This document shows positions 11,857 through 52,089 of a stretch of DNA of 64,000 nucleotides, piece after piece. The stretch is from positions 11,909-75,908 of IMG/VR virus record IMGVR_UViG_3300021364_000012. One strand, written 5' to 3'. The position numbers were made by a program, and so were the translations under genes. Under the pieces are notes generated by a model that did not search any database, was not told where the DNA came from, and saw only the letters and a list, made by a program, of their open reading frames with translations. This DNA is from a virus. Each line of letters opens with the position of its first letter. The first letter of the stretch is position 1.

Positions 11857-14766
11857 TTAGGGTGTCACGGCATCTACAAAGATACCTAAAGCCTTTGCCC
11901 AATTCTTACGCTTATATCTCTTGAGACTCACCCAAAAAGGACGATCTGAAACCCATTTGCGTATCTCGCTATTGAGCTTATCCGCACTAACCTTACGCCT
12001 CTTAAATTCTGTGACCTCATCGAGGAGGCGAGAGTAAAACTCAATGTCATCCAAAGCATGAATAGAAATCAGCTCGGAGTCCATACCCTCTCTCGCATAC
12101 TGTACTCTTAACTCTTTCTGTTTCTGTTTCATATCCAAACGAAACTTTTTTCCTCTTGTTTGACCTGGTAACCCTGCTTCCTCTATGTTCGCTTTGTTAG
12201 CGTAATGCTGTTGCATGGCGTGGACTAGCTCATGTCCTGCTATCGTTTCCCGATCTTGTAGATACCTGAGAGGGAGTTCAGTCATATTCTTGAGAACATT
12301 AAAGATGATGTGGTGAATACCATCCCAATAATAGTTAGCTGCACCATGTGAGGACTCTTGAAGATGCACTGCGATTAAACCTAGTTCATCATCTTCAATG
12401 TAGTATCTACCTCCGTCTTTAACCTTGTACTTTGACAGTCGCTCAACCGCTTCTAGGTAATCATCACGCATTATGGCGAGGATGTATTTCTTATCCCCTG
12501 TTGTCCATTTTTTAAGCTCACGAATTATTTCGATTTGCATGTCTGAGATCGTCCCAATGAGAGCCTTATTCCCTCTTGGGTTATTAAAGATGCTCTGTGC
12601 ATCAAGTTGATCTACTTTTGCCTTAAGCTTATAGAAATCAGGGTAGGTAAGATTTGCAGACTTTAACTGATCTGCTATTTCTGAAAACGCACGTTGTGCG
12701 TTATTTACTTGGAAGATGACCTCTTCCTCATCATGCTCACCTCTTTTGACCCCAAGGGGTAGGTATCCAAGGTCTTCAAGTATCCATTCAAGACCCTCAA
12801 CGGACTCAGCGTTCAGCCCCCCTTTGGAGCTATCCTCTTTTTCCCTTCTAAGCCAGTATTGGGCGAGTAAGCCTTTACCTATTTCTGATACTTGGTCGAT
12901 GAGATGTTGTGGGGGTCTGATTAATCCTGCTTTTCTTAAAGGAGAGCCGTTGTTCTCAAAACCACTGTCATAAGGTATGACTCTAGCAGAACCGCTACCA
13001 CTATCATGCACATAACCTAAATCTAAGTTATTAGCGGGCTTTCTGCCATTAGCCTCTGACTTGTCAAGATTACGATACTTCAAGTTCGGAGAGTCGGGGG
13101 AAGGTCTGCCAATATTTCTAGCAGTGTCTCCATTCGGTAAAGAGCTTCTGTTTTTACCTTTAGGATTCTCTGAATCTCCGACAGGAGTCCCTGTCGTAAA
13201 GCTAGAAAGAGAGTCGGGTGGCGAGACTTCCCTATAGAACTCAGCTCTCTTATTGATTTTACTATTTCTCTCATAGAGCCGTTTAGCTAGTAGAACACCT
13301 GCCTCATTATCTGAATAATAATGGACTCCACGATCTATCCGAGACTGTGCCACCATATTTGCCACCTCTAATAACTCTCGCCTTAAAGAGGGGTATTTCT
13401 CAGATAGCAAATAAGCAACATAATACGCCTGTGTCGTATGTCCACTAGGATATGAAGGAGTCTGTGCTGACTCTAAGTAGTCAAACTTAAAGTCAAAACC
13501 GTACATTTGTGCGAGCACGTTTGGTCGAACGACGTTGAAATAGTTTTTATGGGAATAAATAATATCTGATATTTCTTCCATAGTATTTCTAATAGTAACA
13601 GCGTCCTCTGAAATACCATATTCACTTAAAAGAGAAGAAAAAAGATACTCTGATTTCTGATCTAAAAAGTAACGGAGACTCTCGGAGTTATATTTATTCT
13701 CATATTGATGAGAGATTAAAGGCAACTCACTGAGTAAATACTCATAAGTAGGTGGGCTAGGGATCAAAATCTCAGTAAGATTCGCCTTCTTCTTCTTGAT
13801 CTCTTTAGCCTCCTCACTAAAAGTCGGAGTGTTAACAGGCTTTTGCCCACGATGTTTAGCCTCTTCCCTCCTCTTATTCTTAGCAAGCTCTGCCCTTTCT
13901 TCTTTGGGCATCCCGTATGCTTTTTCTCTTGGCATACATTTGAGGGGTTTCTTTCCGTTGCTTGTAACAGTAGCCCATTCTTTCGTACTAGACACGCCGC
14001 ATGGGCCAACAATGTCACCTGGTTCATACTCTTTCTCGTCTCCGTCTTTTTTCTTAACAGTGTGTTTGATTGGAGTGATAGCGATCCAATCCCCCCAAGT
14101 AGCTCGCTCATCGGGTTTACCACCACCATGCCCCGAGAACCAAGTATCTAAGCCACCATGCCCCGTATTTTTCATTTTAGAGTCATCTCGCTTCGACACC
14201 TTCAAGTATCGAGAAACAATTTTAGTACCCATATCTTGACTCTTAGAGCCTGTTTTGCCCCCATAGCAGTCAACATATGGACGACAAGAAGCCTTCTCTG
14301 AGAACCCCATGTCCTCACAACTCTTAGACTCACAATGCTCTCTATCCCACTTACGAGGCATCTTGTACGAGGTGTCTTTCCCCGAAGAGTTCTTTCTCAG
14401 AGAAGGATTTCTGAGCATGGTATCTCTTGTCCTGAAATCCTTGTTCCTACCCTTGTTAGGCTTGAACCCAAATCTCCTATAAAATTTAGTCAAACGAGAC
14501 ACCGAACTAGCACCAAAGTCTGTGGAGGGAGAAAGAGATAACATAACCCCATTATCATCTGCCCAAGAGATAATCTGAGACATAACCTCTGAGCCTAAGC
14601 CTCGTTTTCGGTTTTCAGAGGGAATCTGAACTGTCATGATCCTGACGATAGGGGCGTGATATTCATCGCCACTCGATAGGAAAGAAGTCCATAAGACAAG
14701 ACCCTGATATTGGCTCTCTAAGTTACCTTCTAGTGTCTTTAGCGATTGCTCTAAAGTAGGCGACAT
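11857..14766 (-). CDS. Multidomain (polyvalent) protein: GNAT acetyltransferase, Cys-rich modules, PAP2 phosphatase, zincin metallopeptidase-like
   Basis: RKRGLGS..LTKFYRRFGF (GNAT); RP...TPSYPSGH...SRIDRGVHYYSD (PAP2); GHELVHAMQ (HExxH). Confidence 0.8.
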   Translation of the reverse strand: MSPTLEQSLKTLEGNLESQYQGLVLWTSFLSSGDEYHAPIVRIMTVQIPSENRKRGLGSEVMSQIISWADDNGVMLSLSPSTDFGASSVSRLTKFYRRFGFKPNKGRNKDFRTRDTMLRNPSLRKNSSGKDTSYKMPRKWDREHCESKSCEDMGFSEKASCRPYVDCYGGKTGSKSQDMGTKIVSRYLKVSKRDDSKMKNTGHGGLDTWFSGHGGGKPDERATWGDWIAITPIKHTVKKKDGDEKEYEPGDIVGPCGVSSTKEWATVTSNGKKPLKCMPREKAYGMPKEERAELAKNKRREEAKHRGQKPVNTPTFSEEAKEIKKKKANLTEILIPSPPTYEYLLSELPLISHQYENKYNSESLRYFLDQKSEYLFSSLLSEYGISEDAVTIRNTMEEISDIIYSHKNYFNVVRPNVLAQMYGFDFKFDYLESAQTPSYPSGHTTQAYYVAYLLSEKYPSLRRELLEVANMVAQSRIDRGVHYYSDNEAGVLLAKRLYERNSKINKRAEFYREVSPPDSLSSFTTGTPVGDSENPKGKNRSSLPNGDTARNIGRPSPDSPNLKYRNLDKSEANGRKPANNLDLGYVHDSGSGSARVIPYDSGFENNGSPLRKAGLIRPPQHLIDQVSEIGKGLLAQYWLRREKEDSSKGGLNAESVEGLEWILEDLGYLPLGVKRGEHDEEEVIFQVNNAQRAFSEIADQLKSANLTYPDFYKLKAKVDQLDAQSIFNNPRGNKALIGTISDMQIEIIRELKKWTTGDKKYILAIMRDDYLEAVERLSKYKVKDGGRYYIEDDELGLIAVHLQESSHGAANYYWDGIHHIIFNVLKNMTELPLRYLQDRETIAGHELVHAMQQHYANKANIEEAGLPGQTRGKKFRLDMKQKQKELRVQYAREGMDSELISIHALDDIEFYSRLLDEVTEFKRRKVSADKLNSEIRKWVSDRPFWVSLKRYKRKNWAKALGIFVDAVTP

Positions 14767-32397: not shown

Positions 32398-35300
32398 TTA
32401 CTTCCTTTTTCCTAATATCCTATTTCTTAAAGAATACTTATTTTCTCTAGGAGCTGTCCTTTGAGAGGACACACCTCGACCACGCATTCTAGGATAAGAA
32501 GACGCAAAACCTTTTCCGCTAATAGAAGTATTATTAGGAGTTCCACTCGCAAAATATTTCTGTTTCCCAAAGTTCCTTGAAGCTACCCACACCATTCTTA
32601 TTAGTGCATCGGACATATCGTCATGCTTACCCTGCACTTGAGGAGCTTCGACTGTAATCACATGCTTACTGTGTACATGTGCTTGTAGCTCAAAAAGCTC
32701 AGAGATATAGGGTGCGTGTCCTTCAACTTCAGGGTTAGGGTTGTCGTATAACGCTAATTTCTCATCCCACATCAAAGACTTGAAGTTCTGATACATATCC
32801 GAAGTCTTATTCTTAGTCATGTGTTCCGACTTCATCTGACCCAAGCCTCTTTTTGAGAGAGCTTGTTCCAAAGGAATACCAGCCCATTGGTCAAATATAC
32901 CCTCAGAAACATAAAACTTCTTAGTCAGTTGCAAAATCCAATCAGCAACATCGTCAAAATCGAGCCTGTCCTTATCAGCGTAATCACCTTCCCCTGCTTT
33001 AATCTGATCTACAAGATCAACCACCACCTTGTTTTCTTCTAAATGACCAATCGCTATAGCGGTTCCGTCGCCTACGAGACCTAAGTCGATACCCATAAAA
33101 TGTGGCTTTCTTGCAGGTGCTCTATTTCTTTGTCTGAGACTAGGGTCTACACACGCTAGGAGGTCTTCTTCTTTCTCTATCCAACCCCTCGTTCTATCCG
33201 TAAACTCTCCACCATACTCCGTAAAGAAAACAGCGGCGTTCTTTAAATAATGCTTCTCAAACTCTTCCGCAGGGACGGTGGGGTTCACCTCCCAAGTAGG
33301 GGCTTGAACACAAAGCATATTTGAAGAAGCCCCTCCACCTTGCATACCTATATTAAATAGCTTGTAGAAGAGTCCCTGTTTGCCCAATGGAGAAGAAATA
33401 AGAATAACCCGACCTTCCACGTCTCCAATGGGCTTTGTTGGGTTTGTAGGGTCTTTCGGAGAATATGCCGAAGTTGAAGGCACTACCGCATTATAGACTT
33501 CTTCAGCTCCCGACTGTCCACTCTCAGTAAAGTGAGCTACCTCGTCAAGTATCACGCAAATATTACCTGCACCACGAAGACCTTTAGCGACACAAGATCG
33601 GAAGGTTACTTTAAGAGTGGCTTTTGCATCTGCGTTCTCAATATACCTCCCGTATTTCTCCACATCGTTTGGTGTTTGAAAACGTGCATAAGACAGTGTG
33701 TTATTTGCTGTGTAAGGACCAAAAAAAGCACAGTTCCGATAGTGACCTGAAACTTCTTGATAAAGAAGACCCGCTTGGTCTTTGTCTGTAGCGACAGAAA
33801 TAATCTGAATATTATTGCTCGCAGGAAGACCATAGTATTTCTGAGGGTCGCCTTTTTTGATCAGCTTGTAAGTCTCATAAGCGGCGATGCAAGCAGAAAT
33901 AGTAGTGTTATGGTTTGTAAAGCAATTCCCCACAAACATAGAGCCTTCAGGCACGTTCAAGTCATAAACATGACACTCTGAATCTTCGACACTTTTAATA
34001 GTGTCGAAGAAATAGTGGGTATCTAAAATATGCTCAAGCTTATCTTTTATTGAGTTAGACAAACGCTCGGAGTCAAGCACCTTCTTTATACGAGGGAAAG
34101 AAAGAGAATCTGAGTTATTTAAAAGTCGAGTCGGTACACCTCTTTCTTTTAAGTACCCACCTAAACCACGAACATAGAAATCATGAGAGCTTCTCAAAGT
34201 GGACTCAAGTTCTTTGAGTACCTTTTTCTTTCTATCTGAAATAAATCCGATCTCCCTACAGAACACACGATAGGACTCTAAACCTTTTACCCGAACACGA
34301 CCTCTAACCTGACCTTCCTCATTTTTTGAATGGGAAAATGAAGAAACGACACCTAAGTTCATAAGAATTATGTGGACTTGTCGTAAAAGCTCCAAAGAGG
34401 CAGAACACAAAGAAATCTCTTTTGATTGCTTTTCAGAGCAAACGTAGCCGTCCGTCTCAAAGAGTCCCCTTAAAAAAGCACAGATAACAGGTTTGGGGCT
34501 TCTAAGAATTACTTCTGGAACACACTTCTGTTGTAGCGGTGTTTTAATTCCCCAACCAATCTGATGTAAGAAATCCCTGTGCTTCTTACTGTGACACACG
34601 ACACGATACGCATTTGCTTCCAATACAGGATAACAAGAAACCTTGCCAAAGAGGTGTACCATCTTAAGCACTAATATATCTTTAAAGTCTTTCTCCCCAA
34701 CAGTAACCACAACATCTTTTTCTGAAGCCCATGTCCCATCTCCCACTAGGACACCAAGCATCTCCCCCCAATCTTCATTCAAATATTCTGGAAGGTTCTT
34801 CACACCTTCAACGATATGCTCTGAGAAAGAAACATAATCTTCTGCAAATATGCCCCTCTTGTAATTAAGACAAGCAACATCCCCCTCAACCACATCCTCT
34901 AAATACTTCCAAGAAATATTAAAGTCAGAGTCTAGCACCTTTATACGATGATTTGGAGTTCCTTCTATTTCAAAACCCGAACGTGTTGTTATTCTTTTAG
35001 TTTCCTTGATGCCTCCATTATAGAAAAAGGCCGCCCTAGACTTTCTCCCACCCTCTTGTAAGACTTCCGTAGAAATAGGTTGATACTCAGGAGCACCCAA
35101 AGACGCATCACCTAGTGTGTCTATTCTTACTAGACCCCTACTCGTAGGTATAAGAGTGTCTCCCCGAACACACTTTCCCGAGCGTCTCCCTATTGAGAGA
35201 ATCATCTCTCTTCTTTGCTGTCCCGGAATCACTTCTCCGATGTTACAGCGTCCTTCATCAAACAGTTTCTTCAAATAAGTCTTTTCAGTGTGTTCTTCCC

Positions 35301-35511
35301 AATCTTCCCTCCTCCAATCACTTATTTTGAAGGTGTAAGTGTCGTCTAGCTCTAAGCCGTAGTGAGCTTTAAGAATGATTTTCTGTATTGGAAATAAAGT
35401 CATCTTCAAGCCCCAAGGGGCTTCTACAAACTCTATAATGTCTGCATCTCTCTCAGACTGCTTGCCCATTCGAGCCGAAGCACCAATGGCTAAAGAAGAA
35501 AGACTCATCAC
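32398..35511 (-). CDS. terL: Terminase large subunit (intein-containing)
   Basis: Walker A GRRSGK|T, Walker B VILDEVAH, ISSP motif III, nuclease MGIDLG, FDQW, HDDMSDA. Confidence 0.92.
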   Translation of the reverse strand: MMSLSSLAIGASARMGKQSERDADIIEFVEAPWGLKMTLFPIQKIILKAHYGLELDDTYTFKISDWRREDWEEHTEKTYLKKLFDEGRCNIGEVIPGQQRREMILSIGRRSGKCVRGDTLIPTSRGLVRIDTLGDASLGAPEYQPISTEVLQEGGRKSRAAFFYNGGIKETKRITTRSGFEIEGTPNHRIKVLDSDFNISWKYLEDVVEGDVACLNYKRGIFAEDYVSFSEHIVEGVKNLPEYLNEDWGEMLGVLVGDGTWASEKDVVVTVGEKDFKDILVLKMVHLFGKVSCYPVLEANAYRVVCHSKKHRDFLHQIGWGIKTPLQQKCVPEVILRSPKPVICAFLRGLFETDGYVCSEKQSKEISLCSASLELLRQVHIILMNLGVVSSFSHSKNEEGQVRGRVRVKGLESYRVFCREIGFISDRKKKVLKELESTLRSSHDFYVRGLGGYLKERGVPTRLLNNSDSLSFPRIKKVLDSERLSNSIKDKLEHILDTHYFFDTIKSVEDSECHVYDLNVPEGSMFVGNCFTNHNTTISACIAAYETYKLIKKGDPQKYYGLPASNNIQIISVATDKDQAGLLYQEVSGHYRNCAFFGPYTANNTLSYARFQTPNDVEKYGRYIENADAKATLKVTFRSCVAKGLRGAGNICVILDEVAHFTESGQSGAEEVYNAVVPSTSAYSPKDPTNPTKPIGDVEGRVILISSPLGKQGLFYKLFNIGMQGGGASSNMLCVQAPTWEVNPTVPAEEFEKHYLKNAAVFFTEYGGEFTDRTRGWIEKEEDLLACVDPSLRQRNRAPARKPHFMGIDLGLVGDGTAIAIGHLEENKVVVDLVDQIKAGEGDYADKDRLDFDDVADWILQLTKKFYVSEGIFDQWAGIPLEQALSKRGLGQMKSEHMTKNKTSDMYQNFKSLMWDEKLALYDNPNPEVEGHAPYISELFELQAHVHSKHVITVEAPQVQGKHDDMSDALIRMVWVASRNFGKQKYFASGTPNNTSISGKGFASSYPRMRGRGVSSQRTAPRENKYSLRNRILGKRK
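33907..35172 (-). mobile_element. Intein with LAGLIDADG homing endonuclease in terL (422 aa)
   Basis: N-terminal CVRGDT, block B GTPNH, LGVLVGDG and FLRGLFETDG, C-terminal VYDLNV...NHN followed by Thr+1. Confidence 0.93.
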
Positions 35512-45488: not shown

Positions 45489-46544
45489 ATGCGTATGGAA
45501 AACGAGTTGAAGCTAGACTTCAAAGATGTCCTTTTCAAACCTAAGAGGTCTACTCTTACTTCAAGAAGAGAAGTCAATCTCGATAGGTCATTTAAGTTGA
45601 AATGGTCTAATAGGACTTGGAAAGGGATACCCATAGTAGCTTCAAACATGGATACAGTAGCCACTTTTGAAGCTGGGAAAGTTCTCACTAATCTTAATAT
45701 GATGATCTGCTTGCACAAGCACTACACCGAAGCAGAGTATGTTAAGATATATGAATGGGTCTGCGAAAGAGGAGGAGATTTCTCGCAACATTGGGCTTAT
45801 TCTATGGGAATATCAGACGCAGAGTTTGATCGCCTAAGAAGCATCCAATCTCTAACAGAAAACGCAATCTCCACCATCTGCATTGATGTGGCGAACGGAT
45901 ACACTGAGAGATTTATCAATTTTGTCTCTAAAGTGAGAAGAGAGTACCCTGACAATATAATTATCGCAGGAAATGTCGTAACCGCTGAAATAACAGAACA
46001 GTTAATCTTAGCAGGTGCAGACATTGTTAAGGTTGGAATCGGGTCAGGCTCCGCCTGTACCACTAGAATACAAGCAGGTGTGGGATTTCCCCAACTTTCA
46101 GCCGTCATAGAGTGTGCAGATGCCGCACATGGTCTTGGAGGACGTATCATGTCCGATGGGGGGTGTACTTGTGCAGGAGATGTGTCTAAAGCCTTTGGAG
46201 GTGGAGCAGATTTCGTAATGCTTGGAGGTATGCTCGCAGGGCATACAGAGAACCTCAGATTAAACGAAGAGGGCAAAGCAGTCTTCTATGGTATGTCGTC
46301 TAGTACAGCTATGGAGAAATATCACGGAGGCGTGAGCAGTTACAGGTCTTCTGAAGGACGCACAGTGACACTCAACCCAAGAGGACCTTTAAAAGACACA
46401 ATGCTAGAAATACTCGGCGGTGTTCGATCTACATGTACCTATATTGGAGCAAAAGAACTTAGAGAGCTGAGTAAATGCACAACATTCATTCGAGTACTTC
46501 AGCAATACAACCCCGTATATGAAGCACAGACAAAGGAGAAATAA
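45489..46544 (+). CDS. guaC: GMP reductase (E. coli GuaC type)
   Basis: LKLDFKDVLFKPKRSTL.SR, SNMDTV, IDVANGY, GIGSGSACTTR, FYGMSS, YRSSEG, GGVRSTCTY. Confidence 0.95.
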   Translation: MRMENELKLDFKDVLFKPKRSTLTSRREVNLDRSFKLKWSNRTWKGIPIVASNMDTVATFEAGKVLTNLNMMICLHKHYTEAEYVKIYEWVCERGGDFSQHWAYSMGISDAEFDRLRSIQSLTENAISTICIDVANGYTERFINFVSKVRREYPDNIIIAGNVVTAEITEQLILAGADIVKVGIGSGSACTTRIQAGVGFPQLSAVIECADAAHGLGGRIMSDGGCTCAGDVSKAFGGGADFVMLGGMLAGHTENLRLNEEGKAVFYGMSSSTAMEKYHGGVSSYRSSEGRTVTLNPRGPLKDTMLEILGGVRSTCTYIGAKELRELSKCTTFIRVLQQYNPVYEAQTKEK

Positions 46545-46545
46545 G

Positions 46546-47721
46546 ATGAGCACCGTTGCAGTTATCGGAACACAGTGGGGTGACGAAGGTAAAGGTAAGA
46601 TCGTAGACACTATTTCTGAAAGCTCGAACTACTGTGTAAGATTCCAAGGCGGTTCAAACGCAGGACACACAATCATAGCCAACAATAAAACATTCAAATT
46701 AAGATTGACCCCAAGCGGAGTGATACAAGGAGCAATCGGAATCGTAGGGTCAGGTTGTGTTGTAAACTTAGATGTCCTTGAACAAGAAATAACGAGCCTT
46801 GAACTCCCAAAAGAAAAGCTTTTGTTAGACAACAAGAGCACTTTAATCCTCCCCCTCTATTTAAGAATAGACTCGGAGAGAGAAGAGAAGAGAAATAAAC
46901 CTATCGGCACAACAAAGAACGGTATTGGAGTTGCCTACGAACAAAAAGCATCTCGAAGTGCTTTTAGAGCAGAAGACCTAAAAAACCCTAGTGTTTGGGT
47001 AGACAAAGCAAGAGGTGTCGTAACTAGATATTTCTCAGACAAAGAAACAATAAACAGAGAGGTTGACGAAATCATAACACACCTCTCACACCACGCATCT
47101 TTCTTCAAAGAGAGAATTAAAGACACAGGGGAAATCCTCCACCAAGCATTTCTTAGGGAGGAAAGAGTAGTCATAGAAGGTGCTCAAGGCACTCTCTTAG
47201 ACATAACTCACGGCACATATCCTTTCGTCACAAGCTCCACAACTATTTCTGGAGGAATAAGTGCTGGAATAGGATGTGCCCTACCAAGAAACTCTGAAAT
47301 TATCGGAGTAACAAAAGCCTATTGTACTAGAGTTGGTGCAGGTGAGTTCCCTTCTGAAGAAGAGGGAGAGATTGAAAAACTGCTACAAACAAAAGGTAAA
47401 GAAATAGGTGTGGTGACAGGAAGAAGAAGAAGATGTGGCTGGCTTAATCTTGACGAGCTAAAGTACGCCCACAGGCTTAATGGGTTCACACAAATCGCTA
47501 TTACAAAAGTAGATGTATTAGACGACTTCGAGCAAGTCAAAGTCTTAGTAAATGGCGAATTAGTTGCTTTTGAGGGTTGGGAAAACAGCTCAAACGCTAC
47601 AAGCTATAGCGACTTACACCCCAACTTGAAGAAATACCTCTCATATATCGAAGGTCAAGTGGGAGTGAAAATAGGAATAGTCTCAACAGGACCAAGAAGA
47701 GAAGACACTATTTTCGTCTAA
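46546..47721 (+). CDS. purA: Adenylosuccinate synthetase
   Basis: QWGDEGKGK (canonical Asp), GGSNAGHT, IGTTKNGIG, EGAQG, GTYPFVTSS, TRVGAGEFP, TGRRRRCGW. Confidence 0.95.
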   Translation: MSTVAVIGTQWGDEGKGKIVDTISESSNYCVRFQGGSNAGHTIIANNKTFKLRLTPSGVIQGAIGIVGSGCVVNLDVLEQEITSLELPKEKLLLDNKSTLILPLYLRIDSEREEKRNKPIGTTKNGIGVAYEQKASRSAFRAEDLKNPSVWVDKARGVVTRYFSDKETINREVDEIITHLSHHASFFKERIKDTGEILHQAFLREERVVIEGAQGTLLDITHGTYPFVTSSTTISGGISAGIGCALPRNSEIIGVTKAYCTRVGAGEFPSEEEGEIEKLLQTKGKEIGVVTGRRRRCGWLNLDELKYAHRLNGFTQIAITKVDVLDDFEQVKVLVNGELVAFEGWENSSNATSYSDLHPNLKKYLSYIEGQVGVKIGIVSTGPRREDTIFV

Positions 47722-49001: not shown

Positions 49002-49094
49002 GTAGATTGCCTTTCAAAAACTTGAGCACAAGAAGATATACCGAAAAAGCTATATTGTTTTTTGCTCAATTTGACTAGCACTCTACACAAAAAA

Positions 49095-49616
49095 TTAAAC
49101 TTCAGAGTCTCCTTCTTTTTCTTCTCCGTCCCACTCTATTTCCACCTTCTCTTCTTTATCTTTATTATCTTTTGGGTTGATCCATTGACTGACCACACCT
49201 TTAAGCTGAACTTGATCTTCTGTCCTAGTCTTAATGACAGTCTCCCCCTTAAACACGGAGAGCTTGTCTATCACAGCAGACTGAAGCTCAAAGATTTGCT
49301 CTCTAAGCAGTTGCATTTGTATCTGTGCATCCCTCAAACGGGCTATTAGAGCTTCACGATCTCCATTGGCGTTAGCCAACTTGTCTTTAAGCTCTTCTAC
49401 TTCTGAAGGGTCTCTACCCGAAGCTATCGCAAGCATCGAAGAAATACTACCCGTAAGCATACCTATTATTCCAATAAGAATGTCTCGGTTCTCCTCCACA
49501 ATCTTTGTGGTAGATAAAAAATAAATCAACTCACAGATAGCCAACATAAAGACGACACTAGCCCACCACCCTCTCTTGGCTTTTTCTGACTGTGTGAACT
49601 GTTTGTTTGTGCTCAT
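49095..49616 (-). CDS. 2-TM membrane protein with coiled coil, coupled to the cyclase gene
   Basis: Two hydrophobic helices then heptad repeat; ATGA overlap with upstream cyclase stop. Confidence 0.7.
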   Translation of the reverse strand: MSTNKQFTQSEKAKRGWWASVVFMLAICELIYFLSTTKIVEENRDILIGIIGMLTGSISSMLAIASGRDPSEVEELKDKLANANGDREALIARLRDAQIQMQLLREQIFELQSAVIDKLSVFKGETVIKTRTEDQVQLKGVVSQWINPKDNKDKEEKVEIEWDGEEKEGDSEV

Positions 49617-50473
49617 TTCCTACCTCTCTTCTTAGGTTTCTTTTCCTCTTTTTGATTAAAAATATATTCTATGAAAGCGTCATACTCAGGCATGTAATAA
49701 GGAAGACCAATCCAAGTCCTCACCATTGGTCTCAAAGACATTTGAAATAAAAAATAGAGAATAAAAACAAGCTCAACTATGGCAAGTCTCCAAATAAACC
49801 ACCAAAACCAATCCAACAACTTACGATCTCTAGCTCTTTTCTTTATATACTTCGGACCTCCAAGTCTTTTGACTTTCTCTGAACCTGGAGGAGGCTGTAG
49901 CGATTCGATGGTTTGCCCTACCGCATATATTTCTTGAGGTGAAGAAACGCCCTTAAATTTATACATGCCTACACAGACATATCTTGTGTTTTTTGGTGTG
50001 AACTGATTTGTTCTATTTCTTATAACTTGAAAAGCCTCTTTAGTCAGAAGAACCTGACCTGCTTGACATAAAGACATAGTTCGAGCGGCGATATTCTTAG
50101 AAAGACCCTCCAACTCAACTCTCTTAGCTCCCACACCAACATAAAGATCATCTTGCTGTACTTCTATGACTTTCCCCCAATGAACTCCAATCCTTGTGTT
50201 CAGCTTAACTTTTTTAGGGATTGTTTCTTGGTACGCCAAAGCGAAATTTACTGCGTCTATTACTCTTTCAAAAGAAAGAAGAAAACCGTCAGACCTGTCT
50301 ATTTCTCTACCATCATACTTATATACAAGAGAGCGAGCGAGTCGATCATGGACTTGAAACCACTGTGCGGCAACCTTTGCACCTGCTCTTTGAACAAATG
50401 CGGTAGAGCCAATTATGTCTAAAAGAACAATCGCTAAGTATCGCTCTTTCATTACTATTCCATGATGTGACAT
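49613..50473 (-). CDS. Class III nucleotidyl (adenylate/guanylate) cyclase with C-terminal TM anchor
   Basis: LLDIIGST, GREIDRSDGFLL, RIGVHWG, GLSKNIAAR, GQVLLT, YKFKGV; hydrophobic WFWWFIWRLAIVELVFILYFLF. Confidence 0.85.
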   Translation of the reverse strand: MSHHGIVMKERYLAIVLLDIIGSTAFVQRAGAKVAAQWFQVHDRLARSLVYKYDGREIDRSDGFLLSFERVIDAVNFALAYQETIPKKVKLNTRIGVHWGKVIEVQQDDLYVGVGAKRVELEGLSKNIAARTMSLCQAGQVLLTKEAFQVIRNRTNQFTPKNTRYVCVGMYKFKGVSSPQEIYAVGQTIESLQPPPGSEKVKRLGGPKYIKKRARDRKLLDWFWWFIWRLAIVELVFILYFLFQMSLRPMVRTWIGLPYYMPEYDAFIEYIFNQKEEKKPKKRGRK

Positions 50474-51144: not shown

Positions 51145-52089
51145 ATGTTGTCGTGGGACACAAAAGAGATATTTCTAAATAAGGTCAAATCAAAAGGCGG
51201 TTTTGCTTGTCACCACGCACATTTCGACAAGGCATATCTCATCAATGAAGAAGCTCTGGAAATATCCCAAAGCTCCTTACAAGAAAAATGGAAACTCTAT
51301 CGGAAGTATAAGTCTGAGTACACAGAAGAAGACTTAGAAAGAAGAATGACCCTGTGCATAGAGAATATGATCTCTCAAGGTGCTAAATACTGTAAGACTT
51401 TTGTGGATGCAGATTCTATTGTGGGACTATTACCCGTAAAAGTAATGTCTTCTTTGAAAGAGAAATACAAAGAACAGATAAAGCTAGAAATCGCAATACA
51501 GCCCTTAGAGGGAGTCCTTAACCCTAAGACTCAAAAAACATTTATTGATGCGTGTGAGATTGCAGATGTTATTGGCGGTCTCCCCGACAGAGACGAAAAC
51601 CCAAGACAACACGTCGATTTCTTAATGGGACTTTCTAAAGAAATGAACAAGCCCATTGACATCCATGTAGGTCAAAACAACATCCCTTCAGAACAAGAAA
51701 CAGAGATGGTAGTGGATCGGATAACCTACCACCGATTAGAAGGAAGAGTTAATTTAGTACATGCGATTTCTCTTTCCTGTCAGCCTAAAAGAGACAGAGA
51801 AAGAATCATTTCTAAATTAAGAGACACAAATACAAGCGTTATTGTCTGTCCCTCAGCGGCTCTTAGTATGAAACAACAATCTGAGAAATATGCTCCAATA
51901 CACAACTCAATAGCTCCTGTAATGGAGCTATTGGAGCAGGATGTGAATGTACTACTCGGAGTAGATAACATCCACGATCTCTTCATGCCTCTAGTAGATG
52001 GAGACCTCTACTTCGAGAGTCGCCTACTCATGGAAGCAATAAGATACTATGACTTAGATAAAATAGCAGAAATAGTATCTAAGTCTTAA
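51145..52089 (+). CDS. Amidohydrolase-superfamily deaminase (cytosine deaminase CodA-like)
   Basis: HAHFDKA (HxH), DIHVG, HAISL, CPSA, GVDNIHD.FMP. Confidence 0.75.
   Translation: MLSWDTKEIFLNKVKSKGGFACHHAHFDKAYLINEEALEISQSSLQEKWKLYRKYKSEYTEEDLERRMTLCIENMISQGAKYCKTFVDADSIVGLLPVKVMSSLKEKYKEQIKLEIAIQPLEGVLNPKTQKTFIDACEIADVIGGLPDRDENPRQHVDFLMGLSKEMNKPIDIHVGQNNIPSEQETEMVVDRITYHRLEGRVNLVHAISLSCQPKRDRERIISKLRDTNTSVIVCPSAALSMKQQSEKYAPIHNSIAPVMELLEQDVNVLLGVDNIHDLFMPLVDGDLYFESRLLMEAIRYYDLDKIAEIVSKS

Follow-up and report, generated by a model that had tools for sequence, protein, structure and literature searches.

Our analysis of the window, a 64,000-nucleotide stretch of viral DNA corresponding to positions 11,909 to 75,908 of the IMG/VR record IMGVR_UViG_3300021364_000012, centres on two overlapping genes on its minus strand, which code for a protein that carries a nucleotidyl cyclase domain of class III and for a small membrane protein with two transmembrane helices and a coiled coil, hereafter the partner. 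The viral record to which the window belongs measures 75.9 kb, is about 24% complete by estimate, and would thus be part of a phage genome of some 300 kb. Its phage origin is supported by the tail sheath, portal, prohead protease and large terminase genes that it carries, and the nearest relative of this terminase is found in an unannotated 485-kb metagenomic phage. Upstream of the cyclase gene, and on the same strand, lies a gene for 179 amino acids with no assigned function; downstream of the pair lies thyX.

The cyclase gene (49613..50473, minus strand, as all features of the pair) codes for 286 amino acids. Residues 15-165 match PF00211 with an E value of 7.7e-7 (29.3 bits, against a cut-off of 21.9), a match also found in a scan of the whole record. 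The cyclase homology domain occupies approximately residues 8-190 (49904..50452). An AlphaFold2 model built from a 48-sequence alignment reached a pLDDT of 89.9, and Foldseek retrieved with it, at an E value of 1e-13 and a TM score of about 0.9, the mycobacterial adenylyl cyclases Ma1120 (PDB 4wp8/5d0e, matched as 5d0e) and Rv1900c (1ybt/1ybu, matched as 1ybu). These are the closest solved folds and share the metal-binding Asp pair and the Arg with the phage protein, but they are only 20-24% identical to it. The catalytic set comprises the metal-binding Asp19 and Asp62, the phosphate-binding Arg94 and the transition-state pair Asn127/Arg131, all of which, together with Glu120, are invariant across 40 phage homologues. 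Since the catalytic residues are intact, the protein is probably an active nucleotidyl cyclase; enzymes of class III are active only as dimers.

Beyond the catalytic domain, residues 192-207 (49853..49900) form a conserved linker, QPPPGSEKVKRLGGP, which is common to the bacterial relatives of the TIGR04510/STAND type. It is followed by a single C-terminal transmembrane helix, placed at residues 222-248 (49730..49810) by a Kyte-Doolittle scan and represented in the model by a helix at 207-247, after which the protein ends with about 40 poorly conserved residues. The juxtamembrane stretch that precedes the helix, on the cytoplasmic side, has a net charge of +9 by charge count, and the distribution of charges suggests that the catalytic domain is cytoplasmic and tail-anchored. 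The original prediction, made from the letters of the window, of a membrane-anchored cyclase that keeps both metal-binding Asp residues and the NxxxR motif is thus borne out by the family matches, the fold and the invariant columns.

The same prediction had noted that the base-specifying region (EIDRSDG, VELEG) looks non-canonical, and alignment makes the departure precise. In the EIDRSDG hairpin a single residue is deleted, at the very place where adenylyl cyclases carry the purine-specifying Lys, and Glu120, within VELEG, aligns with the specificity Asp of Rv1900c. Ma1120 selects ATP through Lys101 and Asp157 (PMC4215837), whereas the phage cyclase has the deletion at the former, Glu120 at the latter, and an insert of 11 residues before Glu120. 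It therefore carries neither canonical base-selecting pair (Lys/Asp for ATP, Glu/Cys-type for GTP), and the same is true of proteins of the type of XC_0250, a cyclase of Xanthomonas campestris.

A likeness to myxobacterial and xanthomonad cyclases, pointed out in the original prediction, turned out to be well founded and leads to the TIGR04510/XC_0250 subfamily. The NCBIfam model TIGR04510 (814 positions) matches the phage cyclase over positions 7-204 with an E value of 5.7e-47, far stronger than the Pfam match. The score is 160.7 bits against a cut-off of 400 bits; on its sequence, the phage protein shares only the N-terminal cyclase domain and, without the tetratricopeptide repeat (TPR) region, is not a member of TIGR04510 as defined. 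The cellular relatives that we found are all long proteins: a cyclase fused to a STAND ATPase and TPR (Burkholderiales, myxobacteria), a kinase fused to a cyclase, or a cyclase followed by a transmembrane helix and TPR (Lysobacter). They share with the phage proteins the IDRSDG and GAKxxExEG motifs and the linker, and many of the bacterial ones lack the Asn. Of 41 genomes sampled from the family of the Lysobacter metagenome-assembled genome, 26 encode a full-length TIGR04510 protein. At all six positions published for XC_0250, the highest-scoring of these proteins, L067 (1237 bits), has the matching residues D, D, L, A, L and A, with a single fixed offset of 7, which places XC_0250 itself in the TIGR04510 family.

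The phage cyclase domain is 40% identical to that of L067 over 180 residues (E 4e-40). It resembles the XC_0250 type in belonging to the same class III subfamily, with the Lys-deleted IDRSDG hairpin, the GAKxxExEG segment, a (V/L)E(L/V)EG motif and a PPxxxxK..R.GG linker, and it shares with the TIGR04510 architecture (L053) a transmembrane helix after the cyclase domain. By contrast, it lacks the TPR portion of about 600 residues, since it ends about 40 residues past that helix, it has Asn127 where the XC_0250 type has Pro, and it is phage-encoded beside a gene for a protein with two transmembrane helices instead of a cNMP-GGDEF receptor (cNMP, cyclic nucleotide monophosphate). Residues 1-220 of XC_0250 convert GTP to cyclic GMP (cGMP) and do not use ATP (PMC3770947). 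XC_0250 is an active guanylate cyclase although it lacks the Asn (PMC3770947); in our reading of the alignment, the substitutes for Asn and Arg given in that study would lie downstream of the true positions, with the Arg conserved and the Asn replaced by Pro. Because XC_0250, of the same subfamily, makes cGMP in vitro, we take cGMP, by homology and with moderate confidence, to be the most likely product of the phage cyclase.

The partner gene (49095..49616) codes for 173 amino acids. Its product begins with a helical hairpin (49419..49571), supported by the model, the invariant columns and hydropathy, in which a first transmembrane helix (residues 16-40) is joined by a short loop with an invariant Asn43 to a second, Gly/Ser-rich one (45-66). 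A long conserved helix follows (residues 70-122; 49251..49409; motif DRxALIxRLRDxQI...LQ), modelled with pLDDT values of 83-96 and predicted to form a cytoplasmic coiled coil, and behind it comes an acidic tail with an invariant Trp145. The helices of the model itself run from 7 to 36 and from 41 to 65 in the hairpin and from 70 to 122 in the long helix. Invariant residues include N43, G52, G56, the G67-R68-x-P70 turn, the DRxxLIxRLRDxQI block and W145. From the flanking charges, the topology would be that of an N-in/C-in hairpin with a charged cytoplasmic C-terminus. The partner has 1475 homologues; an exhaustive phmmer search over 1.8 billion representatives returned only 71 (50% clustering). 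The family is restricted to phages; a protein-atlas look-up gave viral clusters only and no Pfam family.

The two genes overlap by ATGA (49613-49616), where the partner start meets the cyclase stop, and a GAGG-like ribosome-binding stretch stands ahead of this overlap. The junction and the two-helix, coiled-coil nature of the second product are as first described. In all 20 giant-phage loci from IMG/VR, the partner gene directly follows the cyclase gene on the same strand, with a junction that varies from a 20-nt overlap to a 15-nt gap. The flanking genes fall into at least four contexts across relatives and differ from those of the window in most of the 20 loci. Across these loci the partner is the more conserved of the two proteins (70-91% identity, against 62-77% for the cyclase). 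In a further clade, with partners about 50% identical, the cyclase gene lies 1 kb away in convergent orientation with one gene in between, in four loci out of four, and retains its motifs and its transmembrane helix; the linkage thus survives rearrangement. The neighbourhood comparison that had been suggested as a check therefore supports a real, conserved two-gene module. The original prediction had also held that genes unlinked in relatives, with a partner that is simply a holin, would speak against it. The outcome is mixed: the genes proved to be linked in the giant phages, but the partner family also has cyclase-less members in small-phage lysis cassettes, which we describe below.

Strain-level variation agrees with the conservation of both frames, which are kept in a wetland-metagenome strain about 97% identical to the window. 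Within either open reading frame (ORF), the only insertion or deletion of this strain adds 6 nt, in frame, to the part of the cyclase gene that codes for the Lys-rich C-terminal tail (window position 49636). The same strain has a 1-nt insertion at position 49088, in the spacer before thyX. There are further fragments nearly identical to the window in runs that bear the label of one coded organism. When the surroundings of the pair were scanned for promoters and terminators, the scores were no better than those of shuffled sequences. The RNA data consist of a single identical contig of 175 nt from a marsh metatranscriptome, inside the cyclase ORF; as it might derive from DNA carried over, it is too little for a claim of transcription.

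The cyclase has 790 homologues at E values of at most 1e-3, those listed being about 280-300 amino acids long. The best 120 of the 790 are 63-82% identical to it and come mostly from metagenomic collections (ENA, Logan, JGI), on contigs of up to 360 kb. Seawater, marine and wetland samples are among the sources of both the cyclase homologues and the 1475 partner homologues. A tblastn search of 50,697 phage records with the cyclase, the partner and a distant relative of the partner gave no match, and we accordingly know of no cultured representative. The few viral cyclase folds in BFVD all have other architectures, and the literature that we searched nowhere describes a class III cyclase of a phage accompanied by a partner of this kind.

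The clearest indication of what the partner may do comes from its more distant relatives. These are proteins of 110-145 amino acids that share the loop and coiled-coil motifs; a comparison of the giant-phage and short types with hhalign gave a probability of 99.9% (E 4.6e-31, 113 columns). The short type is found on phage contigs of 20-70 kb, on none of which a cyclase lies within 4 kb, and two short-type phage records that are 98-100% complete contain no cyclase anywhere. In 13 of 17 small-phage loci a Peptidase_M15_3 endolysin (phrog_894) is encoded at most 1.4 kb from the short partner gene, and nine of the 17 have the order endolysin, two-helix protein, GTA_holin_3TM (phrog_3427). Because these shorter, cyclase-less members sit in small-phage lysis cassettes beside an endolysin, the partner is most likely a lysis-type membrane protein, whether a holin, an antiholin or a lysis control protein. 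An intermediate type (P0260-type; about 40% identity, with a Pro-rich tail) occurs on contigs of 98-133 kb, again with no cyclase in the record. The conserved C-terminal extension with the invariant Trp145 is present in giant-phage partners and absent from the short cyclase-less forms. In its small size, N-in/C-in hairpin, Gly/Ser-rich second helix and charged cytoplasmic C-terminus, the partner resembles class II (two-helix) holins and antiholins, and its short homologues adjoin an endolysin and a GTA-type holin. It differs from class II holins in being larger than is typical, in its 50-residue coiled coil and in having no endolysin nearby in giant phages, and its holin function is putative.

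Three roles had been proposed for the pair, namely manipulation of host cNMP, exclusion of competing phages and timing of lysis, and the context favours the link with lysis. We tentatively read the pair as a lysis-coupled signalling module, in which a probable guanylate cyclase has been added onto a membrane protein of lysis cassettes, a reading that we regard as possible, though short of probable. Such a truncated signalling cyclase would have joined the partner in one giant-phage group and then been kept tightly linked to it, and the partner would function without a cyclase in many phages. The two genes, co-transcribed, would constitute a membrane module of an uncultured marine and wetland giant-phage clade. 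With its cytoplasmic cyclase domain tethered to the inner membrane by the single C-terminal helix, the cyclase could meet the partner in the membrane through their transmembrane helices, and also via coiled coil and basic juxtamembrane helix. Cyclase activity, which depends on dimerisation, would thereby be coupled to the state of the lysis protein. Control might run from partner to cyclase, the partner switching the enzyme on or off as it oligomerises in the membrane or, alternatively, in the reverse direction, with the cyclase product acting on the partner. A phage-made cNMP signal would thus be tied to the timing of lysis or to the state of the membrane. A stronger version is a second-messenger lysis clock, in which the phage cNMP, probably cGMP, directly gates a holin-family protein, or is gated by it, and so sets the timing or the inhibition of lysis. 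We consider this version distinctly unlikely; if it were true, a nucleotide signal would join holin concentration and membrane potential as a determinant of lysis.

Several observations weigh against coupling to lysis. Above all, no endolysin or known holin stands beside the pair in the window or in giant-phage relatives, and searches for Peptidase_M15_3, GTA_holin_3TM, Phage_lysozyme and SLT gave no match in the own record and four relatives, two of them complete; it is, as a consequence, only through distant homologues that the pair is linked with lysis. About four arrangements account for the 17 small-phage loci, which do not count as 17 independent observations, and the partner has no match to any described holin family. 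The cNMP receptor domain PF00027 is absent from five of the clade's records, of which two are complete genomes (312 and 375 kb). Furthermore, XC_0250 is only 40% identical to the phage cyclase and has Pro at the position of Asn127, so that the nucleotide specificity may differ.

The signal might instead be aimed at the host. In a host take-over, cGMP or cyclic AMP would flood the cell and act on host receptors (CRP/FNR-type, cNMP-GGDEF), reprogramming metabolism or motility, and the partner would only anchor, scaffold or regulate the enzyme. With no cNMP-binding domain in the phage genomes searched, a canonical receptor would be the host's, and the homologous Xanthomonas cyclase XC_0250 does signal through a separate cNMP-GGDEF protein (PMC3770947). 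The position of the pair among GMP reductase, PurA and ThyX genes in the window also fits, but this nucleotide-gene neighbourhood is not conserved in relatives. Host take-over further leaves unexplained why the partner is the more conserved protein (70-91% against 62-77%) and why a cyclase-less partner family occurs in lysis cassettes, and we find it somewhat unlikely.

The layout of a class III-fold cyclase gene adjoining the gene of a small membrane protein recalls Pycsar (PycC with a PycTM or PycTIR effector), an analogy drawn in the original prediction together with the remark that the partner shows no cNMP-binding domain. The remark is correct, as none was found in the partner, but the analogy fails: PADLOC defence models match neither cyclase nor partner even at an E value of 1, cNMP-binding domains are missing from the complete relatives as well, and we reject a Pycsar identity for the pair. 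It is encoded by a phage and not by a bacterial defence island, and its partner family also exists without a cyclase. One could still conceive of a Pycsar-like exclusion or abortive module, in which cNMP would be made upon a trigger such as superinfection and the partner would be a nucleotide-gated SLATT-like pore that kills the cell or blocks the competing phage. Apart from the layout, it finds encouragement in a faint match of the partner to SLATT_fungal (E 0.057; 13.9 bits against a cut-off of 26.5). However, only 8 of 38 proteins in the partner family match SLATT, with E values no lower than 0.021, and unrelated families of transmembrane and coiled-coil proteins rank equally high, so that we dismiss a SLATT identity as noise. 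The closest cyclases are signalling-type TIGR04510/STAND proteins and not PycC, the partner occurs without a cyclase in small phages, and a Pycsar-like function appears improbable.

There might, on the other hand, be no functional coupling, the two-helix gene serving simply in lysis and the cyclase gene being an accessory, independent of it, that happens to travel along. Many phages do have the partner family alone, as do the P0260-type relatives. Nevertheless, the junction is tight in all 20 loci despite their differing flanks, proximity is retained after inversion in a separate clade, and cyclase-less forms lack the conserved C-terminal extension, with its invariant Trp, that partners in giant phages have acquired, all of which makes independence very improbable. 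We also hold as very doubtful that the domain makes no second messenger and instead acts as a sensor, by nucleotide binding or dimerisation, like some cyclase-like proteins of division or regulation. Its non-canonical specificity residues would fit, as would the bacterial relatives, many without the Asn, that are N-terminal domains of STAND/TPR proteins, but D19, D62, R94, N127 and R131 are kept in the phage family without exception and an Asn-lacking homologue is still an active guanylate cyclase (PMC3770947).

The surroundings of the pair deserve a few remarks of their own. In the window, nucleotide-metabolism genes lie around it for GMP reductase, adenylosuccinate synthase (PurA), a cytosine-deaminase-like amidohydrolase and ThyX. 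The first two (45489-47721, plus strand) overlap by 26 nt, with GMP reductase scoring 524 bits, above its cut-off; acting together, the two enzymes would channel GMP via IMP towards AMP. They are situated 2 kb from the probable guanylate cyclase, in a neighbourhood that relatives do not conserve. We ruled out that the PurA-like protein is PurZ, of the 2-aminoadenine pathway, since it scores above the cut-off of the PurA equivalog and reaches only 117.6 of the 300 bits for PurZ. The amidohydrolase (51145-52089, plus strand) matches NCBIfam NF005365 (PRK06886) with 365 bits against a cut-off of 340, and in the relative locus L021 the pair has a copy of it, with 57% identity, in its vicinity. Farther away, the large-terminase ORF (32398-35511, minus strand) is 1037 amino acids long, and only its residues ~480-925 match terminase. 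Residues ~32-542 match intein-containing DNA helicases of Staphylococcus phages and helicase-type PHROGs; this long stretch, N-terminal or internal, could represent an intein or else a helicase-like sequence that was inserted or fused.

Other genes accompany the pair in relatives. Directly upstream of the cyclase gene, 7 of 10 inspected loci code for a lipoprotein of about 70 amino acids with a lipobox Cys and four conserved Cys (L007:4770-4985, L019:4742-4975, L012:4778-4984, and also L004, L005, L014 and L016), which might be an outer-membrane partner, for instance o-spanin-like. In those loci the lipoprotein gene is preceded by conserved genes for 110 and 106 amino acids. Neither these three nor the neighbouring genes for a 458-amino-acid protein and a 114-amino-acid membrane protein belong to a Pfam or PHROG family, and none of them is present in the window. 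At 0-3 kb downstream of the pair, a DUF481 protein (outer-membrane beta-barrel type) with a signal peptide is encoded in two divergent relatives, L019 (9473-10207) and L021 (5714-6478). In the convergent clade, the end of a gene for a 97-amino-acid protein with several transmembrane helices and no known family (L077:6213-6506, minus strand) overlaps the start of the cyclase gene. Finally, an N-terminal motif of about 25 residues, MRR(S/T)ASE(I/V)..LE.R(I/V)ARLE, starts several paralogous genes near the pair whose remainders are unrelated (L007:7872-8273, L012:7869-10112, L016:7197-8108, L017:9829-10776); these genes are clustered, and the motif points to a common leader for targeting or packaging.

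Among the signalling enzymes of cells, class III cyclases are classics, and in bacteria little is understood of signalling by cGMP, which is itself rare; to our knowledge, the XC_0250 type is the only characterised type of xanthomonad guanylate cyclase. A widespread phage family has a truncated, apparently tail-anchored version of this type, locked to a very conserved membrane protein of a lysis-cassette family. The module is small, with two genes and 459 residues in all, and is amenable to direct testing in E. coli. Should the enzyme prove active, a second messenger would be produced by the phages themselves at the membrane of the host and, if the signal is coupled to the partner, this would be a new way to control phage lysis or to sense the state of the membrane.

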